Part shown: one piece after another, positions 1 through 10,175 of the stretch
How positions within the stretch are numbered: the first letter of the stretch is position 1
How the letters are laid out: each line of letters opens with the position of its first letter
DNA from: a virus
Taxonomy: Duplodnaviria; Heunggongvirae; Uroviricota; Caudoviricetes
Virus record (IMG/VR): IMGVR_UViG_2703718840_000003
Span: 1-10,175 of that record
Reading direction: 5' to 3' (one strand)
Length of the DNA: 10,175 bases
Made by a program: the position numbers and the translations under genes
Notes under the pieces: generated by a model
Seen by the model: only the letters and a program-made list of their open reading frames with translations
Told to the model about the DNA's origin: nothing
Database searches by the model: none

Positions 1-2
1 AG

Positions 3-95
3 GCGGAGTTATCCCGCGTGGAGATAGTCGAGCTGCTCAGTCAGGAGTCGGAAAAATTTCACAATATCGGATTGTCTCGCGGGGAGGTGCTTTGA
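3..95 (+). CDS. C-terminal end of an upstream early-operon ORF (partial, starts before the window)
   Basis: Frame 3 is open from the window edge and ends at TGA 93-95 (...[30 protein letters not shown]), overlapping the next ATG at 95 in a TGATG arrangement. Identity not determinable from 31 residues. Confidence 0.4.
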
Positions 96-397
96 TGTCC
101 TGTTCTCGTTCAGTTGTATTACTGAATAACGCCTTAAAAATCACCGTTATGAAAAATGGCGATTTATCTCTTATTCAACTTGGTCTTGATAAAGAAAAAC
201 GCGAAATAACTGAGTCTGTTATCGCGATTTATCAGAACGAATTAAATCTCCTGTCTGATGTGGTCAATTTACTTGTTAAACGCGCTGTATTTCACAAGCA
301 AATCTCCTCCGTGGATGAACTGACGAAATTAACGACAGAAATTGCCAGCTATTGCGCTGATGAATTTAAAAAACTTAACGACAAAAGGAGCTGGTAA
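95..397 (+). CDS. Hypothetical small protein of the P2-type early/replication operon (orf81-like)
   Basis: ATG at 95 preceded by GGAGG at 82-86 (7-nt spacer); the six-frame track starts this ORF at TTG 92, one codon earlier. Stop TAA 395-397 overlaps the next ATG (TAATG). Position and coupling match the orf80-83 block upstream of gene A in P2; function unknown. Confidence 0.65.
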   Translation: MSCSRSVVLLNNALKITVMKNGDLSLIQLGLDKEKREITESVIAIYQNELNLLSDVVNLLVKRAVFHKQISSVDELTKLTTEIASYCADEFKKLNDKRSW

Positions 398-621
398 TGC
401 CGGACAACGTAGATTTTATTCAGGAACAACAGGCTGAATTACTGGAGCGTCAGATTAACGCGGCAAGGGTAAAACATTGCGGTGCTTCTGCGCTGGTTTG
501 CGAAGAGTGTGACGCGCCAATACCTGCTGCCCGTCGTGCGGCTTATCCGTCAGCCACGCGTTGTGTTTCCTGCCAGTCAGTCTTTGAAGCAAAAAACAAA
601 CATTACCGGAGAACGGCATGA
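397..621 (+). CDS. TraR/DksA-family C4 zinc-finger protein (P2 orf82-like)
   Basis: 74 aa with CxxC-(17)-CxxC (CEECDAPIPAARRAAYPSATRCVSCQ) near the C-terminus, typical of TraR/DksA zinc fingers. ATG 397 overlaps the upstream stop; stop TGA 619-621 overlaps the next ATG at 618 (ATGA). Confidence 0.8.
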   Translation: MPDNVDFIQEQQAELLERQINAARVKHCGASALVCEECDAPIPAARRAAYPSATRCVSCQSVFEAKNKHYRRTA

Positions 622-893
622 GTATTCGTATTGAAATTGGCGAACGTTATGTCGTTACCAGTGACAGCTTTCAGTTTATTCTCCACGAGAAAAAGAGAGC
701 GGAAAGCGGTAAAAACGCCGGTCAGGAATGGCTGGCGGTGGTTGGTTATTATCCGAAATTAAGCCAGCTCGTTTCCGGCCTGATGCATCACGATATTCTG
801 ACCGGAAGCGCAAAGTCTTTTGCTGATTTAAACGCGCAGGTTGAGCAACTCAGCAGGCGTTGTTCAGAGGCTTTTGGCTCATATGGCCGTTAA
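618..893 (+). CDS. Hypothetical protein (P2 orf83-like), last small ORF before gene A
   Basis: 91-aa ORF translationally coupled to the preceding gene; its 3' end overlaps the gpA start at 883 by 11 nt. No recognisable catalytic motif. Confidence 0.65.
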   Translation: MSIRIEIGERYVVTSDSFQFILHEKKRAESGKNAGQEWLAVVGYYPKLSQLVSGLMHHDILTGSAKSFADLNAQVEQLSRRCSEAFGSYGR

Positions 894-3156
894 AGCCTCC
901 GGGCGTTTTGTCCCTCCGTCAGCATTTGCTGCAGGCACCGGTAAGGCGTTTACCGGTGCTTATGCATGGAACGCGCCACGCGAGGCCGTCGGGCGCGAAA
1001 GATCCCTTACACGTGACGAGATGCGTCAGGTGCAAGGTGTTTTATCCACGATTAACCGCCTGCCTTACTTTTTGCGCTCGCTGTTTACTTCACGCTATGA
1101 CTACATCCGGCGCAATAAAAGCCCGGTGCACGGGTTTTATTTCCTCACATCCACTTTTCAGCGTCGTTTATGGCCGCGCATTGAGCGTGTGAATCAGCGC
1201 CATGAAATGAACACCGACGCGTCGTTACTGTTTCTGGCAGAGCGTGACCACTATGCTCGCCTGCCGGGAATGAATGACAAGGAGCTGAAAAAGTTTGCTG
1301 CCCGTATCTCATCGCAGCTTTTCATGATGTATGAGGAACTCAGCGATGCCTGGGTGGATGCGCATGGCGAAAAAGAATCGCTGTTTACGGATGAGGCGCA
1401 GGCTCACCTCTATGGTCATGTTGCTGGCGCTGCACGTGCTTTCAATATTTCCCCGCTCTACTGGAAAAAATACCGTAAAGGGCAGATGACCACGAGGCAG
1501 GCATATTCTGCCATTGCCCGTCTGTTTAACGATGAGTGGTGGACTCATCAGCTTAAAGGCCAGCGTATGCGCTGGCATGAAGCGTTACTGATAGCTGTCG
1601 GGGAGGTCAATAAAGACCGTTCTCCTTATGCCAGTAAACACGCCATTCGTGATGTGCGTGCGCGCCGCCAGGCAAATCTGGAATTTCTTAAATCGTGTGA
1701 CCTTGAAAACAGGGAAACCGGCGAGCGCATCGACCTTATCAGTAAGGTGATGGGCAGTATTTCTAATCCTGAAATTCGCCGGATGGAGCTGATGAACACC
1801 ATTGCCGGTATTGAGCGTTACGCCGCCGCAGAGGGTGATGTGGGGATGTTTATCACGCTGACCGCGCCGTCAAAGTATCACCCGACTCGTCAGGTCAGAA
1901 AAGGCGAAAGTAAAACCGTTCAGCTTAATCACGGCTGGAACGATGAGGCATTTAATCCAAAGGATGCGCAGCGTTATCTCTGCCGCATCTGGAGCCTGAT
2001 GCGCACGGCATTCAAGGATAATGATTTACAGGTCTACGGTTTGCGTGTCGTCGAGCCACACCACGACGGAACGCCGCACTGGCATATGATGCTTTTTTGT
2101 AATCCACGCCAGCGTAACCAGATTATCGAAATCATGCGTCGCTATGCGCTCAAAGAGGATGGTGACGAAAGAGGAGCCGCGCGAAACCGTTTTCAGGCAA
2201 AGCACCTTAACCGGGGCGGTGCTGCGGGATATATCGCGAAATACATTTCAAAAAATATCGACGGCTATGCACTGGATGGTCAGCTCGATAACGATACCGG
2301 TAAGCCGCTTAAAGATACTGCCGCGGCTGTTACCGCATGGGCGTCAACGTGGCGCATCCCGCAATTTAAAACGGTTGGACTGCCGACAATGGGGGCTTAC
2401 CGTGAACTACGCAAATTGCCTCGCGGCGTCAGTATTGCTGATGAGTTTGACGAACGCGTCGAGGCTGCTCGCGCTGCCGCAGACAGTGGTGATTTTGCGT
2501 TGTATATCAGCGCGCAGGGTGGGGCAAATGTCCCGCGCGATTGTCAGACTGTCAGGGTTGCCCGTAGCCCGTCGGATGACGTTAACGAGTACGAGGAAGA
2601 AGTCGGGAGAGTGGTCGGCATTTACGCGCCGCATCTCGGCGCGCGTCATATTCATATCACCAGAACGACGGACTGGCGCATTGTGCCGAAAGTTCCGGTC
2701 GTGGAGCCTTTGACTTTAAAAAGCGGCATCGCCGCGCCTCGGAGTCCTGTCAATAACTGTGGAAAGCTCACCGGTGGTGATACTTCGTTACCGGCTCCCA
2801 CGCCTTCTGAGCACGCCGCAGCAGTGCTTAATCTGGTTGATGACGGTGTTATCGAATGGAATGACCCGGAGGTCGTGAGGGCGCTCAGAAGCGCATTAAA
2901 ACACGGCCTGAGAAGACCAAACCGTCAGCAAAGAAACGGAAGCCCGTTAAAACTGCATGAAATAGCGCCATCGGCCAGACTTACCCGGTCGGAACGAATG
3001 CAAATTACCCGTATCCGCGTTGACCTTGCTCAGAACGGTATCAGGCCGCAGCGATGGGAGCTTGAGGCGCTGGCGCGTGGGGCAACCGTAAATTATGACG
3101 GGAAAAAATTCACGTATCCGATTGCTGAAGAGTGGTCGGGATTTTCCTCAAACTAA
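883..3156 (+). CDS. A: Rolling-circle replication initiation endonuclease gpA (HUH superfamily)
   Basis: 757-aa ORF from ATG 883 (the track's 841 start is an upstream in-frame TTG). Contains HUH motif HWH (nt 2077-2085, VEPHHDGTPHWHMMLF) and paired tyrosines YIAKY at residues 450/454 (nt 2230-2244), matching the recalled P2 gpA active-site tyrosines. N-terminus MAVKASGRFVPPSAF matches recalled P2 A. Stop TAA 3154-3156. Confidence 0.93.
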   Translation: MAVKASGRFVPPSAFAAGTGKAFTGAYAWNAPREAVGRERSLTRDEMRQVQGVLSTINRLPYFLRSLFTSRYDYIRRNKSPVHGFYFLTSTFQRRLWPRIERVNQRHEMNTDASLLFLAERDHYARLPGMNDKELKKFAARISSQLFMMYEELSDAWVDAHGEKESLFTDEAQAHLYGHVAGAARAFNISPLYWKKYRKGQMTTRQAYSAIARLFNDEWWTHQLKGQRMRWHEALLIAVGEVNKDRSPYASKHAIRDVRARRQANLEFLKSCDLENRETGERIDLISKVMGSISNPEIRRMELMNTIAGIERYAAAEGDVGMFITLTAPSKYHPTRQVRKGESKTVQLNHGWNDEAFNPKDAQRYLCRIWSLMRTAFKDNDLQVYGLRVVEPHHDGTPHWHMMLFCNPRQRNQIIEIMRRYALKEDGDERGAARNRFQAKHLNRGGAAGYIAKYISKNIDGYALDGQLDNDTGKPLKDTAAAVTAWASTWRIPQFKTVGLPTMGAYRELRKLPRGVSIADEFDERVEAARAAADSGDFALYISAQGGANVPRDCQTVRVARSPSDDVNEYEEEVGRVVGIYAPHLGARHIHITRTTDWRIVPKVPVVEPLTLKSGIAAPRSPVNNCGKLTGGDTSLPAPTPSEHAAAVLNLVDDGVIEWNDPEVVRALRSALKHGLRRPNRQQRNGSPLKLHEIAPSARLTRSERMQITRIRVDLAQNGIRPQRWELEALARGATVNYDGKKFTYPIAEEWSGFSSN

Positions 3157-3328
3157 TAATGATGTTTGACAAAGAGATGTTGATGAGACTAAAAATTTTA
3201 TTTGTCTGTATAACCATTCGGTTAGAGTACAATAGTTCCGAGTGATAGGAATACAAATAATGACTAAGTTTTCAACATGCGATTATTATGGGTTGAATTA
3301 AAGGTAAATAACTATGTTAAATAATATA

Positions 3329-3361
3329 GGGCAAGAGGGTGTTCTTGCCCTTTGTTTATTT
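3329..3361. terminator. Intrinsic terminator hairpin, probably bidirectional
   Basis: Perfect 8-bp stem GGGCAAGA (3329-3336) / TCTTGCCC (3343-3350) with 6-nt loop, followed on plus by TTTGTTTATTT and on minus by TATATTATTT. Lies immediately 3' of the minus-strand SIR2 gene stop (3360-3362) and about 170 nt 3' of gene A. Confidence 0.6.
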
Positions 3362-5954
3362 AAGCGGCGATTTCAATGTTGCTTTTATATTTTAAGAGGG
3401 CGTTTTTGGGAACTGCTGGCCAGGCTGAGTATCTATAATAGTTCATATAATCTTTCTCTATCAGTGTTTTTAGCTGTTTGTTAGCTTGAACTTCATCGCC
3501 AAGTAAAAAGAATGCACACATGGCCGTAGCCCCTTTTGAATTGTTATGTGCTAAAACTGAATTTATCTCATTCTTTTTAATGTCTTGCCCTTCTTTTTTC
3601 TTGGCAACTTCTCTATTGATTATTAAAACATCTTTTTCCCTGTAATCTTTAATTTTTTCAAGGTTTTCATTAGCGATTTTAATTGTTTCTTTATAGTTTC
3701 CTGCAAGAAGATTGGTATAAGATTTTCCTAAGATATAATCACTAAACCCGTAACCTTTTTCATAAGCTTCATCAAGAAGAACTATCGCTTTATCATAATC
3801 GCCGTTTAAAGATGCAATATCAGATTTTAATTTTAAAATGGTGATTTCTGATTTGTTTCTTGGCAGGCTATCAATAAACTCCTCTGCCAATTTGATGTTG
3901 TTTTTATCAATTAGTAATATGTCTACAATACTGTTTGTATGATTATTTTTCCACGGGCAGTTCATGGCTTCTTTGACTAATTCAATACCAGCTTTGATGT
4001 CCCTGTTGCAGCCTATCTCATATCGAGCTTTAAATATAATGAAAGGAGCAATTCTTGCAATGTCGCTCTCTTCTTCATATTTATCAATAAAGCCTTTCAT
4101 CAGGTTGGGAGTGTTTTCATCGAAGTCTGTTTCAAATAAAGATAGATGCAGTTGTGTTAAATATTTTAATATGTTTCTTTTTTTATTTTTTGATGATGTT
4201 TTGTAAGCGTTGGATAATGTATCTATGCATAATAATGTATCTTCTTTCTTTTGCAATGCGCAGGTGAAATCAGTATATAACGACAAATATGTATCGTGAG
4301 TAGGGTTGACCTCTTTTATTTTGTCAAGCAGTTCTTGTATTAATTTATTACAATCTTTCTTATCATGGCTTGATTGATGTTTTGTCTTTATTGCGTCATA
4401 TTTTATTCTCCATGCAATATTATCCAGATCACTGCTTTGGAGTAAGCTTTTATCAATTAAATCATGTATTTCATCAAAGGTTATTAATTCTTCATCATTA
4501 TTTTCTAGATGTAGAATAGCAATTCTGCTTAAATGATTCTTAAGATTTATGCTATATGGGAATTTTTCAAGCAATCCCTTAAGGTAATGTATTTTTGCCT
4601 TTAGATCTGTGAATATGTTTGCCCTTGAAAGGGCGTAATTTATATTAAATTCATCAAGAGCTATAAGATTATCACTAATTTCTAATGCTGACTTTGTGTC
4701 TTTTTGTTCTTCTTTTATTTCAATTAGCCTACGCAGATATTTAGACTTTATATTGTCACTATCAGCGTTATTGATTAATTCATTCAGTTTTGACTCTGCG
4801 TTTAAATAATTTTTATTTCTAATGAGGTTGTCAATGTATAACAAATTCTTAAAATCTTCTTCGGGGATCTTTTGATCGTCTAAATCACTTTGGGATAGCT
4901 CGTTTATTAATGACGATATGTCATGTGTTAGAGTGTGTTTTTTTAATTTTGAGAGGTCAGATTTGATAATGCCATTTTTAGATAAGTTGTACTCATCTGT
5001 TATAAAGTTTTGGATCATCATCTCTCTTTTTGTGGATTTTTGATTCCCTCCAAAAGAGAGTGCGCAGCCTAATTCTAGGGCTAGTTCTGCCATCAATTCA
5101 TCAAAACCTTCTATTTCTACCCAATAAACTTTATCTTGACCTAGAAGCCTAATAAGTTCTGGTGGGATGGAGTCATTTTTTCTAACGCACCAGTATACTC
5201 CATTTCTTAGGTAATCGTCCTGTTTTAATAAATGTTTTAAAACATCCATGATAGAGCTGTCATTGCCAGCATAACCAACAAAAATAATCCCGTATTCTTT
5301 AGTGAATTCAGTTAGTTTTTCACGAGTGTTACCTTCTAATGACTCGGTTTCTTTTAAAGAGCTTTTTATGCTATCAAATAAATAATCACCATGTAATTTT
5401 ATTATTTTTGGCCTTGAAGAAGTAATTGAGACGCCTTTAATTGATGAATCATGTGCACATAATAATGGTCTGTCAGAAGAAAATTGATAAAATGCTTCAT
5501 TTATTAAATCGTCAAAATTTGTTGTGAAGACAGTATCAAAAAACTTTGATTCAAATAGTTCAACGAGATAAGCATATCCAATTGAAGGTAATTTTTTGTC
5601 TACTTGAAGCTCAACAAATCTTCTGCGTTGAGATGGAAGATCAAATTTCTTTTCAAAAAGAGATGAGTATTCATTGTTTGGGTCGTACCAGACTGGATGG
5701 TTTTTGGATAGCCATTTTTTAGCTTCTTCGGCATCGACATATTCTTGATTAGATAGTCTTGTGTATATCTCTTCTCTCCATTTCGCTACTAACTCTTGAC
5801 CAGTTTTTATTCCAGATGTAACGGATGCGCCAGCACCAAGAAAAAGTGAATAGTTAGGTGATGTACCTGATTTGATTTTTATATAATCAGCTAAATCTTT
5901 AACGGTTCTTTTTTTGGCAACCAGTTGTTCCTTGGTAGTATCACGATCAGACAT
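3360..5954 (-). CDS. SIR2-like (sirtuin-fold NADase) domain protein with a large C-terminal alpha-helical/TPR-like domain; candidate single-gene anti-phage defence protein
   Basis: 864-aa minus-strand ORF, ATG at 5954-5952, stop TAA at 3362-3360. N-terminal about 300 aa carry SIR2 hallmarks: glycine-rich loop SLFLGAGASVTSG (res 37-48, nt 5811-5846), TTNFDDL with Asn146 (nt 5517-5519) and KLHGD with His188 (nt 5391-5393), an Asn-His spacing of 42. The remaining roughly 560 aa are K/N/I/E/D-rich, helix-like, with TPR-like stretches (e.g. GDYDKAIVLLDEAYEKGYGFSDYILGKSY). Strongly AT-rich codon usage unlike the flanks. Confidence 0.85.
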   Translation of the reverse strand: MSDRDTTKEQLVAKKRTVKDLADYIKIKSGTSPNYSLFLGAGASVTSGIKTGQELVAKWREEIYTRLSNQEYVDAEEAKKWLSKNHPVWYDPNNEYSSLFEKKFDLPSQRRRFVELQVDKKLPSIGYAYLVELFESKFFDTVFTTNFDDLINEAFYQFSSDRPLLCAHDSSIKGVSITSSRPKIIKLHGDYLFDSIKSSLKETESLEGNTREKLTEFTKEYGIIFVGYAGNDSSIMDVLKHLLKQDDYLRNGVYWCVRKNDSIPPELIRLLGQDKVYWVEIEGFDELMAELALELGCALSFGGNQKSTKREMMIQNFITDEYNLSKNGIIKSDLSKLKKHTLTHDISSLINELSQSDLDDQKIPEEDFKNLLYIDNLIRNKNYLNAESKLNELINNADSDNIKSKYLRRLIEIKEEQKDTKSALEISDNLIALDEFNINYALSRANIFTDLKAKIHYLKGLLEKFPYSINLKNHLSRIAILHLENNDEELITFDEIHDLIDKSLLQSSDLDNIAWRIKYDAIKTKHQSSHDKKDCNKLIQELLDKIKEVNPTHDTYLSLYTDFTCALQKKEDTLLCIDTLSNAYKTSSKNKKRNILKYLTQLHLSLFETDFDENTPNLMKGFIDKYEEESDIARIAPFIIFKARYEIGCNRDIKAGIELVKEAMNCPWKNNHTNSIVDILLIDKNNIKLAEEFIDSLPRNKSEITILKLKSDIASLNGDYDKAIVLLDEAYEKGYGFSDYILGKSYTNLLAGNYKETIKIANENLEKIKDYREKDVLIINREVAKKKEGQDIKKNEINSVLAHNNSKGATAMCAFFLLGDEVQANKQLKTLIEKDYMNYYRYSAWPAVPKNALLKYKSNIEIAA

Positions 5955-5957
5955 TTT

Positions 5958-5963
5958 CCCTCC
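5958..5963 (-). promoter_or_regulatory. Shine-Dalgarno sequence of the SIR2-domain gene
   Basis: Minus strand reads TATGGAGGGAAA-ATG; GGAGGG (plus-strand ccctcc at 5958-5963) sits 3-4 nt upstream of the ATG. Confidence 0.55.
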
Positions 5964-6266
5964 ATAAATTATGTGTGAGAAGTGAGAATAATCCTAGGTG
6001 CGGTTATTTTTACATGAAATTCAATGGGTTTTCGTTTTTCTTACATGCGTTTTGTGACTGAGATCAAGCTATGAGGGAGGAATGTTCTTTTATTGTTCGC
6101 TAGAGGCTAATTGGCTAATAAGCTTTTACTAATCGTTTATGATGTACCATAGCGTTGAATGATTTTGCATGCATTTGTCAGATGTTTACTGATGTTGTTA
6201 TGTCAGAGCTGGTGCGCTTTAGGTTATTTCATGCAACTGCATTAAAACCACCACATGAAGCGGGCG

Positions 6267-6285
6267 GGCGAGGCGGGGAAAGCAC
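6267..6285. other. Putative cos cohesive-end sequence of the P2/186 family
   Basis: GGCGAGGCGGGGAAAGCAC at 6267-6285 matches, from memory, the 19-nt cohesive end shared by P2, 186 and P4. It lies between the accessory island and portal gene Q, where cos sits in an integrated P2 genome. Not verified by search. Confidence 0.55.
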
Positions 6286-6427
6286 TGCGCGCTGGCGGTG
6301 GTGCTGATTTTATTTTTTCAGCGTCTGAGCGCGTCGTGATGGCGTTTAGATTGTGCGCCGGGGTGTTGGTGTGTCTGCGGGATGTTTTGTGCGGTGGTGA
6401 GCGTGTGAGGGCGTGATGACGGGGTGT

Positions 6428-6449
6428 AAAAAAGCCGCCCGCAGGCGGC
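6428..6449 (-). terminator. Intrinsic terminator downstream of portal gene Q (end of the leftward P-Q transcript)
   Basis: Stem GCCGCC (6434-6439) / GGCGGC (6444-6449) with 4-nt loop, preceded on plus by A6 (6428-6433), giving hairpin plus U6 on the minus-strand transcript 5 nt after the Q stop (6455-6457). Confidence 0.55.
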
Positions 6450-6454
6450 GATGT

Positions 6455-7489
6455 TCAGCCGTTGTCAGTGTCCAGTGAGTAGTTTTTAAAGCGGATGACC
6501 TCCTGACCGAGCCAGCCGTTTATCTCGCGGATCCTGTCCTGTAACGGGATAAGCTCATTGCGGACAAAGACCTTTGCCACTTTCTCAATATCACCCAGCG
6601 ACCCGACGTTCTCCGGCTTGCCGCCCATCAACTGAAAGGGGATGCGGTGCGCGTCCAGCAGGTCTGCGGCACTGGCTTTTTTGATATTAAAAAAATCGTC
6701 CTTCGTCGCCACTTCACTGAGCGGGATAATTTTAATGCCGTCGGCTTTCCCTTGTGGGGCATAGAGAAACAGATTTTTAAAGTTGTTGCGGCCTTTCGAC
6801 TTCACCATGTTTTCGCGAAGCATTTCGATATCGTTGCGATCCTGCACGGCATCGGTGACGTACATGATGTATCCGGCATGTGCGCCGTTTTCGTAATACT
6901 TGCGGCGGAACAGCGTGGCCGATTCATTCAGCCAGGCAGAGTTAAGGGCGCTGAGATATTCCGGCAGGCCGTACAGCTCCTGATTAATATCCGGCTCCAG
7001 CAGGTGAAACACGGAGCCGGGTGCGAAGGCTGTCGGCTCGTTGAAGGACGGCACCCACCAGTAAACATCCTCTTCCACGCCACGGCGGGTATATTTTGCC
7101 GGTGAGGTTTCCAGTCTGATGACCTTACCGGTGGTGCTGTAACGCTTTTCCAGAAACGCATTACCGAACACCAGAAAATCCAGCACAAAGCGGCTGAAAT
7201 CCTGCTGGGAAAGCCACGGATGCGGGATAAATGTCGAGGCCAGAATATTGCGTTTGACGTAAATCGGGGAGCTGTGATGCACGGCAGCACGCAGGCTTTT
7301 TGCCAGACCGGTAAAGCTGACCGGTGGCTCATACCATCTGCCGTTACTGATGCACTCAACGTAATCCAGAATGTCACGGCGGTCGAGTACCGGCACCGGC
7401 TCGCCAAAGGTGAATGCTTCCATTTTCGGGGCGCTGGCGGTCATTGTTTTTGCCGCAGGTCGCGGTGTTTTCCCTTTTTTCTTGCTCAT
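6455..7489 (-). CDS. Q: Portal (capsid vertex) protein gpQ
   Basis: 344-aa minus-strand ORF, the length recalled for P2 gpQ; placed between cos and the terminase gene as in P2. Start ATG 7489-7487 overlaps the stop of the upstream terminase ORF (TGATG on the minus strand). Confidence 0.88.
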   Translation of the reverse strand: MSKKKGKTPRPAAKTMTASAPKMEAFTFGEPVPVLDRRDILDYVECISNGRWYEPPVSFTGLAKSLRAAVHHSSPIYVKRNILASTFIPHPWLSQQDFSRFVLDFLVFGNAFLEKRYSTTGKVIRLETSPAKYTRRGVEEDVYWWVPSFNEPTAFAPGSVFHLLEPDINQELYGLPEYLSALNSAWLNESATLFRRKYYENGAHAGYIMYVTDAVQDRNDIEMLRENMVKSKGRNNFKNLFLYAPQGKADGIKIIPLSEVATKDDFFNIKKASAADLLDAHRIPFQLMGGKPENVGSLGDIEKVAKVFVRNELIPLQDRIREINGWLGQEVIRFKNYSLDTDNG

Positions 7490-8100
7490 CAGTAAAACTC
7501 CAGAATGGTGGATGTCAGCGGGGTGCTGATACCGGCGGTGAGTGGCTCATTTAACAGGGCGTGCATGGTCGCCCAGGCGAGGTCGGCGTGGCTGGCTTCC
7601 TCGCTGCGGCTGGCCTCATAGGTGGCACTGCGTCCGCTGCTGGTCATGGTCTTGCGGATAGCCATAAACGAGCTGGTGATGTCGGTGGCGCTGACGTCAT
7701 ATTCCAGACAGCCACGGCGGATAACGTCTTTTGCCTTGAGCACCATTGCGGTTTTCATTTCCGGCGTGTAGCGGATATCGCGCGCGGCGGGATAGAACGA
7801 GCGCACGAGCTGGAACACGCCGACACCGAGGCCGGTGGCATCAATCCCGATGTATTCAACGTTATATTTTTCGGTGAGTTTGCGGATGGATTCCGCCTGG
7901 GTGGCAAAGTCCATGCCTTTCCACTGGTGACGCTCAAGTATTCTGAATTTGCCACCGGCCACCACCGGCGGTGCCAGCACCACGCATCCGGCGCTGTCGC
8001 CACGGTGTGACGGGTCGTAACCAATCCATACCGGGCGGGAGCCGAACGGATTGGCGGCAAACGGCGCATAGTCTTCCCATTCTTCCAGCGTGTCGACCAT
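7489..8100 (-). pseudogene. P: Terminase large (ATPase) subunit gpP, C-terminal nuclease-domain fragment only
   Basis: 203-aa minus ORF with an RNase-H-like terminase nuclease signature (VWIGYDPSHRGDSAGCVVLA, YIGIDATGLG, HADLAWATMHAL). P2 gpP is recalled as about 590 aa with an N-terminal ATPase domain; here the frame upstream of Met 8100 runs straight into antisense of the capsid gene, so no Walker A/B region is present. Confidence 0.7.
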
Positions 8101-8106
8101 GCAGCG

Positions 8107-9141
8107 TTGCAGCTCCTCGAACTGAACGGCATCGACGCCGGTGATGTGTCGAAAAAATTCACCGTTGAACCGTCGGTCACCCAGACCCTGATGAACACCA
8201 TGCAGGAGTCCTCTGATTTTCTGACCCGCATCAACATTGTGCCGGTCAGCGAAATGAAAGGGGAAAAAATTGGTATTGGTGTCACCGGCTCCATCGCCAG
8301 CACCACCGACACCGCCGGTGGCACCGAGCGTCAGCCGAAGGACTTCTCGAAGCTGGCGTCAAACAAGTACGAATGCGACCAGATTAACTTCGATTTTTAT
8401 ATCCGCTACAAAACGCTTGACCTGTGGGCGCGTTATCAGGATTTCCAGCTCCGTATCCGTAACGCCATTATCAAACGCCAGTCCCTTGATTTCATCATGG
8501 CCGGTTTTAACGGCGTGAAGCGTGCCGAAACCTCTGACCGCAGCAGCAATCCGATGCTGCAGGATGTGGCGGTCGGCTGGCTGCAGAAATACCGCAATGA
8601 AGCCCCGGCGCGCGTGATGAGCAAGGTTACTGACGAGGAAGGTCACACCACCTCTGAGGTCATCCGCGTGGGTAAGGGCGGTGATTATGCCAGCCTCGAT
8701 GCACTGGTGATGGATGCGACCAACAACCTGATTGAGCCGTGGTATCAGGAAGACCCTGACCTTGTGGTGATTGTGGGGCGTCAGCTACTGGCGGACAAGT
8801 ATTTCCCCATCGTCAACAGGGAGCAGGACAACAGCGAAATGCTGGCCGCTGACGTCATCATCAGCCAGAAACGCATCGGTAACCTGCCGGCGGTACGCGT
8901 CCCGTACTTCCCGGCGGATGCGATGCTCATCACGAAGCTGGAAAACCTGTCCATCTACTACATGGATGACAGCCATCGCCGCGTGATTGAGGAAAACCCG
9001 AAACTCGACCGCGTGGAGAACTACGAGTCAATGAACATTGATTACGTGGTGGAAGACTACGCCGCCGGTTGTCTGGTGGAAAAAATTAAGGTCGGTGATT
9101 TCTCCACACCGGCTAAAGCGACCGCAGAGCCGGGAGCGTAA
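8107..9141 (+). CDS. N: Major capsid protein gpN, apparently 5'-truncated at a junction with the P fragment
   Basis: 344 aa from TTG 8107 to stop TAA 9139-9141; recognised as P2-type major capsid protein (recalled full length 357 aa). No upstream ATG/GTG and no SD; the in-frame sequence upstream is antisense of P. The native start and roughly the first 13-17 codons appear missing. Confidence 0.8.
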   Translation: MQLLELNGIDAGDVSKKFTVEPSVTQTLMNTMQESSDFLTRINIVPVSEMKGEKIGIGVTGSIASTTDTAGGTERQPKDFSKLASNKYECDQINFDFYIRYKTLDLWARYQDFQLRIRNAIIKRQSLDFIMAGFNGVKRAETSDRSSNPMLQDVAVGWLQKYRNEAPARVMSKVTDEEGHTTSEVIRVGKGGDYASLDALVMDATNNLIEPWYQEDPDLVVIVGRQLLADKYFPIVNREQDNSEMLAADVIISQKRIGNLPAVRVPYFPADAMLITKLENLSIYYMDDSHRRVIEENPKLDRVENYESMNIDYVVEDYAAGCLVEKIKVGDFSTPAKATAEPGA

Positions 9142-9144
9142 CCG

Positions 9145-9888
9145 ATGACGAGTCCCGCACAGCGCCACATGATGCGGGTCTCGGCAGCGATGACCGCGCA
9201 GCGGGAAGCCTCCCCGCTGCGACATGCAACTGTCTATGAGCAGATGCTGGTTAAGCTGGCCGCAGACCAGCGCACACTGAAAGCGATTTATTCAAAAGAG
9301 CTGAAGGCCGCAAAAAAACGCGAACTGCTGCCGTTCTGGTTGCCGTGGGTGAACGGCGTGCTGGAGCAGGGCAAAGGTGCACAGGATGACATTCTGATGA
9401 CGGTCATGCTGTGGCGTCTGGATACCGGCGATATTGCCGGTGCGCTGGAGATTGCCCGTTATGCCCTGAAGTACGGTCTGACCATGCCGGGTAAACACCG
9501 CCGTACCCCGCCGTACATGTTCACCGAGGAGGTGGCGCTCGCGGCCATGCGCGCTCACGCTGCCGGTGAGTCTGTGGATACCCGCCTGCTGACGGAGACC
9601 CTTGAACTGACCGCCACGGCTGACATGCCTGATGAAGTGCGCGCAAAGCTGCACAAAATTACCGGTCTGTTTCTGCGTGACGGTGGTGATGCCGCCGGTG
9701 CGCTGGCGCACCTGCAACGTGCGACACAGCTCGACTGTCAGGCAGGCGTCAAAAAAGAGATTGAACGACTGGAGCGGGAGCTGAAACCGAAGCCGGAGCC
9801 GCAGCCAAAAGCGGCCACCCGCGCCCCGCATAAGACCCGGAGCGTGACACCGGCAAAACGTGGACGCCCGAAAAAGAAAGCCAGTTAA
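9145..9888 (+). CDS. M: Terminase small (endonuclease) subunit gpM
   Basis: 247-aa ORF, ATG 9145 three nt after the N stop, stop TAA 9886-9888. Length and position match P2 gpM; basic C-terminal tail (KRGRPKKKAS). Confidence 0.88.
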   Translation: MTSPAQRHMMRVSAAMTAQREASPLRHATVYEQMLVKLAADQRTLKAIYSKELKAAKKRELLPFWLPWVNGVLEQGKGAQDDILMTVMLWRLDTGDIAGALEIARYALKYGLTMPGKHRRTPPYMFTEEVALAAMRAHAAGESVDTRLLTETLELTATADMPDEVRAKLHKITGLFLRDGGDAAGALAHLQRATQLDCQAGVKKEIERLERELKPKPEPQPKAATRAPHKTRSVTPAKRGRPKKKAS

Positions 9889-9987
9889 CAACCGAATGCG
9901 CCCCGCGCCAGGGCGGCACGCCGGTCAGTGAGGGTGAATCACCTGACACTGCACCGGCGTCCACCGCCCGACTTTTCAGAGGTAGTC

Positions 9988-10175
9988 ATGATGACGCTGA
10001 TTATTCCGCGAAAGGAGGCTCCCGTGTCCGGTGAGGGTACGGTGGTCATCCCGCAACCGGCAGGCGACGAGCCGGTGATTAAAAACACGTTCTTTTTTCC
10101 CGATATCGACCCGAAGCGCGTCCGGGAACGTATGCGCCTTGAGCAGACCGTCGCCCCCGCCCGTCTGCGTGAGGC
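9988..10175 (+). CDS. L: Head completion/stabilisation protein gpL, N-terminal part (runs off the window)
   Basis: ATG 9988 (MMTLIIPRKEAPVSGEGTVVIPQPAGDEPVIKNTFFFPDIDPKRVRERMRLEQT...) preceded by AGAGGT at 9977-9982; open to the window end. Position after M matches P2 gene order O-N-M-L. Confidence 0.8.
   Translation, partial: MMTLIIPRKEAPVSGEGTVVIPQPAGDEPVIKNTFFFPDIDPKRVRERMRLEQTVAPARLRE

Follow-up and report, generated by a model that had tools for sequence, protein, structure and literature searches.

DSR2 of Bacillus subtilis senses a phage protein through its C-terminus and brings about abortive infection through NAD+ depletion. Avs5, or AVAST type 5, has a SIR2-STAND-TPR organisation whose C-terminal TPR-type repeats are believed to act as a sensor for a phage protein (PMC12931631, PMC11897194), and SPARSA, for example that of Geobacter sulfurreducens, combines a SIR2-APAZ protein with a short Argonaute and with nucleic-acid-guided sensing. 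Here we describe a protein of 864 amino acids (aa) that shares features with each of these systems and is encoded in a stretch of 10,175 nt from a virus of the Caudoviricetes (positions 1 to 10,175 of IMG/VR virus record IMGVR_UViG_2703718840_000003), referred to below as the window. The complete gene occupies 3360..5954 on the minus strand, stop codon included, and is the single long minus-strand open reading frame (ORF) of the window. A SIR2 domain of the SIRim type (residues 1-299; 5058..5954, minus strand) is followed by a C-terminal domain that is almost certainly a TPR solenoid; residues 300-864 correspond exactly to positions 3363-5057. By analogy with the systems above, we propose that this SIR2-TPR protein is, on balance, likely to be a TPR-gated SIR2 NADase that works as a stand-alone, prophage-borne abortive-infection effector.

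What is the nature of the C-terminal domain? The initial annotation had described a large, K/N/I/E/D/L-rich helical part with TPR-like stretches and of unassigned family, and this description holds. The six residues account for 59.6% of residues 300-864 versus 45.2% of residues 1-299. An AlphaFold model, which the same annotation had suggested, was obtained with AlphaFold2 (AF2) for residues 300-864 alone, using 36 homologues as input, and returned a confident TPR solenoid of ~31 helices and zero strands (predicted local distance difference test, pLDDT, 87.9; predicted template modelling score, pTM, 0.80). The full-length AF2 model agrees on the solenoid helices from residue 365 to 856, again with no strands. 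The extent first given for the helical part, 300-864, stands as far as helicity is concerned, but residues 300-364 (4863..5057, minus strand) are a low-confidence linker made of two helices and an acidic loop (pLDDT 34-67), and the solenoid proper covers approximately residues 365-856 (3387..4862, minus strand). It comprises ~29 helices, that is ~14 hairpins, and is the proposed sensor and regulatory module. Pfam detected only sub-threshold TPR matches in residues 300-864, the best being TPR_19, whose 15.4 bits fall short of the cutoff of 25. Neither PADLOC nor NCBIfam matched this region, and PHROGs offered no named family either. A distant family member (P0117) clears the TPR_19 threshold with 27.0 bits. 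The Pfam shortfall points to divergence from the Pfam models and not to a different fold. Family profiles match designed consensus TPR proteins (6.4e-15 for A4 and 1.4e-11 for A2), and OGT and SPINDLY are among the Foldseek matches. Both hallmarks of the TPR superfamily are present: a superhelix of tandem antiparallel helical hairpins and profile similarity to the TPR consensus, which has small residues at positions 8, 20 and 27 and the turn P32-x-x-N...A-W/Y. TPR turns of the ALxLDPxN / DPxNxxAW type lie at residues 431-437 and 503-515, with a conserved Ala at helix position 4. The latter stretch, SLLQSSDLDNIAW (4410..4448, minus strand), is a canonical TPR inter-repeat motif (A-L-x-x-[DP]-x-x-N-x-x-A-W) that encloses P508 of the family consensus and N512. 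No other residue of the domain is as conserved as N512, which does not vary in sets of 83 and of 46 sequences and is the one residue invariant in all alignments. The C-terminal domain is a divergent TPR superhelix, not a new fold, because the AF2 hairpins, the profile matches and the TPR-signature character of the conserved residues agree. Conservation is lowest in helices H13-H22 (residues 554-716; 3807..4295, minus strand), where the column mean is 0.19-0.30 in nine of the ten helices and 0.37 in H19, as against 0.65 for SIR2; this stretch is a candidate specificity region. Within the linker, the sequence DISSLINELS (residues 345-354, 4893-4922; pLDDT <50) precedes the acidic loop 355-364. 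The motif does not vary among 36 Enterobacterales homologues with TPR arms that are just 33-93% identical, and it is not conserved across the wider family; it could be an element for regulation or interaction that is specific to this lineage.

The initial annotation had located the novelty of the protein in this domain. The fold turns out to be ordinary, but the family built on it has a fixed architecture, is widespread and is uncharacterised. When the C-terminal domain was used in an exhaustive profile search, 246 clusters (50% identity) were recovered at E<=1e-3, 156 of them at E<=1e-10, and nearly all of the best 150 of the 246 clusters are ~850-930 aa long with the domain starting near residue 300. 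When ten matches of odd length were scanned with Pfam, seven carried SIR2_2, N-terminally cut in five of those seven. Two profile searches and Pfam scans for other effectors fused to the TPR domain found none, just SIR2 fusions, fragments and generic TPR proteins; the domain thus far appears to be fused only to Argonaute-type SIR2. Full-length relatives at 30-45% identity, from one-genome-per-species data, are spread over many lineages, including Enterobacterales, Vibrio, Pseudomonas, Acinetobacter, Stenotrophomonas and Halomonas as well as Bacteroidota, Verrucomicrobiota, Desulfobacterota, Firmicutes, SAR324 and Deferribacterales. Across 45 loci the C-terminal part is always 553-601 aa long, even where its identity to the E. 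coli domain has dropped to 15-30%. No conserved partner gene was found across 41 loci. The neighbours vary and include a transposase, integrases and P2 tail genes and, here and there, defence genes such as dGTPase, AbiD, type II restriction-modification, SoFic, DarG and PD-T4-2. The 864-aa protein matches PHROG 14359, a group of unknown function, from end to end. Split or interrupted copies occur in Pectobacterium carotovorum (L010), Vibrio sp. nBUS_14 (L019) and Verrucomicrobiales (L069); the L019 match is stretched over 3.8 kb, which suggests an insertion, and Klebsiella michiganensis has separate ORFs for a 272-aa SIR2 and a 557-aa TPR protein (P0213 and P0210). These copies suggest that the gene is recurrently inactivated.

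The N-terminal domain is recognised by PADLOC Aga_SIR2 (2.1e-59) and by Pfam SIR2_2 (4e-15), the latter in residues 141-261 only. It displays the SIR2 motifs GAGAS (40-44), TTNFDD (144-149, with N146), KLHGD (H188) and GYAGND (D232), and the catalytic and NAD-binding motif residues are intact and invariant in 83 family members. The SIR2-APAZ protein of SPARSA (8jkz) is matched at 1e-23 with the single sequence and at 2e-36 with the family profile, and SPARSA SIR2-APAZ (8jkz/8in8) is also the top Foldseek match, at 3e-9. The domain is a member of the clade tied to short prokaryotic Argonautes (pAgo). The Aga_SIR2 profile matches cover positions ~6-296 of 558-1010, ending at ~280-300; since they stop at about profile position 290, the protein has no APAZ domain. 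Proteins of 525-645 aa from Vibrio prophages, Dehalococcoidia and Thermoproteota have only the SIR2 module in common with the family. As this SIR2 is shared by unrelated C-termini, it behaves as a portable effector. Two Vibrio cyclitrophicus elements, a 186/P2-like prophage (L002, 2977-4815) and a Vinavirales-type element (L003, 1354-3228), each encode one such protein of 612-624 aa by the integrase; these have the same pAgo-type SIR2 at 39-47% identity and an unrelated, shorter C-terminus, and one of them is annotated 'pAgo__SIR2APAZ' without an adjacent Argonaute gene. A Vibrio prophage protein match that seemed to reach residue 437 was discarded as a heavily gapped extension, the homology being confined to SIR2.

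How does selection act on the two parts of the protein? Residues 300-864 are genuine coding sequence under constraint rather than an ORF that arose by chance, because they are kept in 246 clusters and the ratio of nonsynonymous to synonymous substitution rates (dN/dS) among E. coli alleles is 0.10-0.16; the corresponding range for SIR2 is 0.04-0.09. Enterobacterales proteins are 71-97% identical to the window protein in SIR2 and 33-93% in residues 381-864. The TPR arm appears from these alignments to be less constrained than SIR2, and diversifying selection is not visible in it. Alleles of E. coli strains 20A24 and NWU_3 (L004 and L005) are 99-100% identical over codons 1-288, bar codons 49-96 at 98.6%, and 82-97% identical beyond codon 288, with a synonymous divergence (dS) of 0.02 before versus 0.47 after this point; their TPR arms diverge by ~12%. 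The recombination breakpoint falls at codons ~289-300 (5055..5090, minus strand), at the SIR2/TPR junction, and its position at the domain boundary indicates that TPR arms are swapped as modules.

The window is a P2-like prophage, and the SIR2-TPR gene is the sole cargo of its gpA-cos-gpQ locus. The replication endonuclease gene gpA (841-3156, plus strand) lies on one side; on the other, the 19-nt cohesive-end (cos) sequence of P2 (GGCGAGGCGGGGAAAGCAC) occurs in exact form at 6267-6285, between the SIR2 cassette and the portal gene gpQ (6455-7489), which is followed by a terminase fragment, capsid gpN and small terminase gpM. The position of cos places the cassette in the cos-adjacent hotspot, and the locus has the expected form of a variable, low-G+C cassette between gene A and portal gene Q: the G+C content of the gene is 32% versus 53-57% in the flanks. 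A Shine-Dalgarno-like GGAGGG, read from the sequence, is found at 5958..5963 (minus strand), 3 nt 5' of the ATG, and a G+C-rich palindromic hairpin (3328..3351, no strand assigned), 9 nt past the stop codon and terminator-like on both strands, closes the single-gene cassette. An Rfam scan of the window detected no RNA family. The gpA-cos-gpQ interval corresponds to the tin/old hotspot, which is rich in anti-phage systems (Rousset et al., PMC9122126; Vassallo et al., PMC9519451). The gene and its flanks (3100-6450) are matched at at least 80% coverage in 19 of 5426 complete E. coli genomes, where the RefSeq label is 'SIR2 family protein', and an identical single-gene layout was seen at the same position in the six other E. 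coli prophages inspected. The allele WP_124831363 is entered as 'SIR2_2' in Table S5A of Rousset et al. (PMC9122126); the SIR2 gene cloned in that study (pFR88) is another one, of P4 satellite origin and different sequence. The prophage in the window is defective: E. coli GB089 carries a prophage (L001) that is 98.4% identical to it apart from 2275 bp which the window lacks. Terminase gpP is without its 5' two-thirds, scaffold gpO is missing altogether and capsid gpN lacks its start, and a leftover 203-aa Terminase_6C fragment adjoins the capsid gene (7489-8122 and 8107-9141, junction at ~8118-8122); the SIR2 gene is intact despite this. Two paralogous DUF5405 ORFs (92-397 and 618-893) 5' of gpA represent an ordinary P2-like early region and are also found in the GB089 prophage.

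How might the SIR2-TPR protein act? We consider it highly probable that it is an anti-phage effector, and probable, with moderate confidence, that the TPR part is the sensing element. The initial annotation had assigned the C-terminal part a phage-sensing role by analogy with DSR2; this interpretation is supported in part: the SIR2-plus-solenoid layout is alike, but the domain itself is unrelated to that of DSR2. Taking DSR2, SPARSA and Avs5 as guides, we picture the following sequence of events. The TPR arm and the linker would hold SIR2 inactive in the resting lysogen. When a heterologous phage infects the cell, one of its proteins or peptides would bind the TPR solenoid, and binding would lift the inhibition and/or drive SIR2-SIR2 oligomerisation, in the manner of target binding by SPARSA or tail-tube binding by DSR2. 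SIR2 would then hydrolyse NAD+, phage replication would halt and the infection would abort, which would shield both the lysogen population and the resident P2-like prophage. Our analysis establishes the fold, the family and its fixed architecture, the intact catalytic residues, the organisation as a single gene, the location in the P2 hotspot and the modular recombination; defence activity, activation of the NADase and sensing through the TPR arm are inferred. A wider and more tentative proposal is that the protein may represent a distinct, widespread and unnamed single-protein defence family, in which a TPR receptor of fixed geometry, with ~14 repeats, has taken the place of the nucleic-acid-guided APAZ/pAgo sensor of an Argonaute-type SIR2. 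This receptor might directly recognise a conserved protein or peptide of the phage and trigger NAD+ depletion without an NTPase, its specificity possibly being reassorted by TPR-module swaps at the junction.

Several observations weigh against this model. The conserved TPR positions are structural signatures and delineate no obvious binding site. Diversifying selection was sought in the TPR part and none was detected, pN/pS being 0.08-0.24 over windows of 36 codons. The full-length model has a pTM of 0.56 and its inter-domain geometry is unreliable, so that autoinhibition is something we infer, and without an NTPase switch the coupling of binding to activation is unexplained. A literature search found no experiment on the SIR2-TPR family, which Rousset et al. 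catalogued without cloning. The strictly constant length also fits a structural or oligomerisation role, and this leads to an alternative in which the TPR arm is mainly architectural, an autoinhibitory or oligomerisation scaffold, and the trigger is sensed elsewhere: for instance, SIR2 or the linker might respond to a small molecule or a nucleotide, or the TPR might hold a guarded host protein whose loss or modification is the signal. We regard it as unlikely. It would account for a length maintained across phyla at low identity, for purifying selection throughout, for conserved residues that are structural and for a linker motif that is invariant in Enterobacterales; moreover, the helical arms of DSR2 also form its tetramer (PMC11850899). 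An improbable alternative is a non-immune prophage 'moron', in which an NAD-dependent deacylase or ADP-ribosyltransferase would use the TPR to recruit host or phage substrates to the benefit of the lysogen or the phage. The P2 hotspot does hold genes unrelated to defence, among them partition systems and toxins (PMC9122126), and TPRs are often substrate adaptors, as in OGT and SPINDLY, both of which appear among the Foldseek matches. However, the SIR2 is a member of the immune clade of pAgo type rather than a deacetylase sirtuin, the gene is patchily spread over phyla in mobile, variable contexts next to defence genes, and pseudogenised or split copies are typical of costly defence genes. Finally, that the protein is a divergent DSR1/DSR2 member with a homologous C-terminus, probably sensing tail tubes, is very improbable. 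In its favour, one gene with an N-terminal SIR2 and a long helical C-terminus is a shared layout, and full-length Foldseek aligns DSR2 chains at E ~3e-7. In a PADLOC hmmscan with a limit of E<=0.1, the models matched were Aga_SIR2, pAgo and PDC-S65 and no others, the comparison with DSR1 being at the level of family models. PADLOC-DB presumably includes models for both DSR1 and DSR2.

What are the implications of a TPR-gated SIR2 effector? If the proposal is correct, a compact, NTPase-free SIR2 receptor joins the immune systems that deplete NAD+, and the Argonaute-type SIR2 effector is portable and can be wired to protein as well as nucleic-acid sensors. The gain is incremental in the sense that the fold and the logic of an effector plus a repeat sensor are already familiar. 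Since some natural alleles have the same SIR2 but differ in the TPR arm, they can serve directly as chimeras to map how the TPR solenoid sets phage specificity, and the P2 hotspot context permits a direct test of prophage-mediated phage exclusion.

This model draws on known systems in different ways. DSR2 is the best working model for how SIR2-TPR may act, given the analogy of a single polypeptide with an N-terminal SIR2 NADase, catalytic Asn and His (here N146 and H188) and a long alpha-solenoid C-terminus. The two proteins nevertheless differ, in that the C-terminus of DSR2 is HEAT-like and that of the window protein is TPR, the SIR2 domains are of different clades, the linker is alpha/beta in DSR2 and helical here, and the lengths are ~1005 aa versus 864 aa. 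We looked for a full-length, high-identity alignment with the characterised DSR2, an outcome that the initial annotation had named as one that would deprive the domain of novelty, and found none; the assignment of the C-terminal domain to DSR2 was rejected, as it has no detectable homology to the DSR2 linker, helical bundle or HEAT-like repeats. Avs5 resembles SIR2-TPR in the pairing of a SIR2 effector with C-terminal repeats of the TPR type, but no STAND NTPase with Walker A/B motifs was matched here by Pfam or PADLOC, the space between the domains being taken up by just the 65-residue helical/disordered linker; the lack of this module implies that an ATP-dependent switch is absent. PADLOC PDC-S65 and the unnamed prophage SIR2 proteins of 525-645 aa are alike in carrying a mobile pAgo-type SIR2 effector module, some with weak TPR signals in the C-terminus, and differ in that their C-termini are different and shorter, alignment being confined to SIR2. 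SPARSA differs in having an APAZ domain and a nucleic-acid-guided sensor where SIR2-TPR has its TPR array, and in its adjacent Argonaute gene, the neighbours here being gpA and cos/gpQ. At the same time it provides the closest SIR2 by both sequence and structure, with the same catalytic motifs, and by analogy activation through SIR2 oligomerisation is a plausible step common to the two systems.
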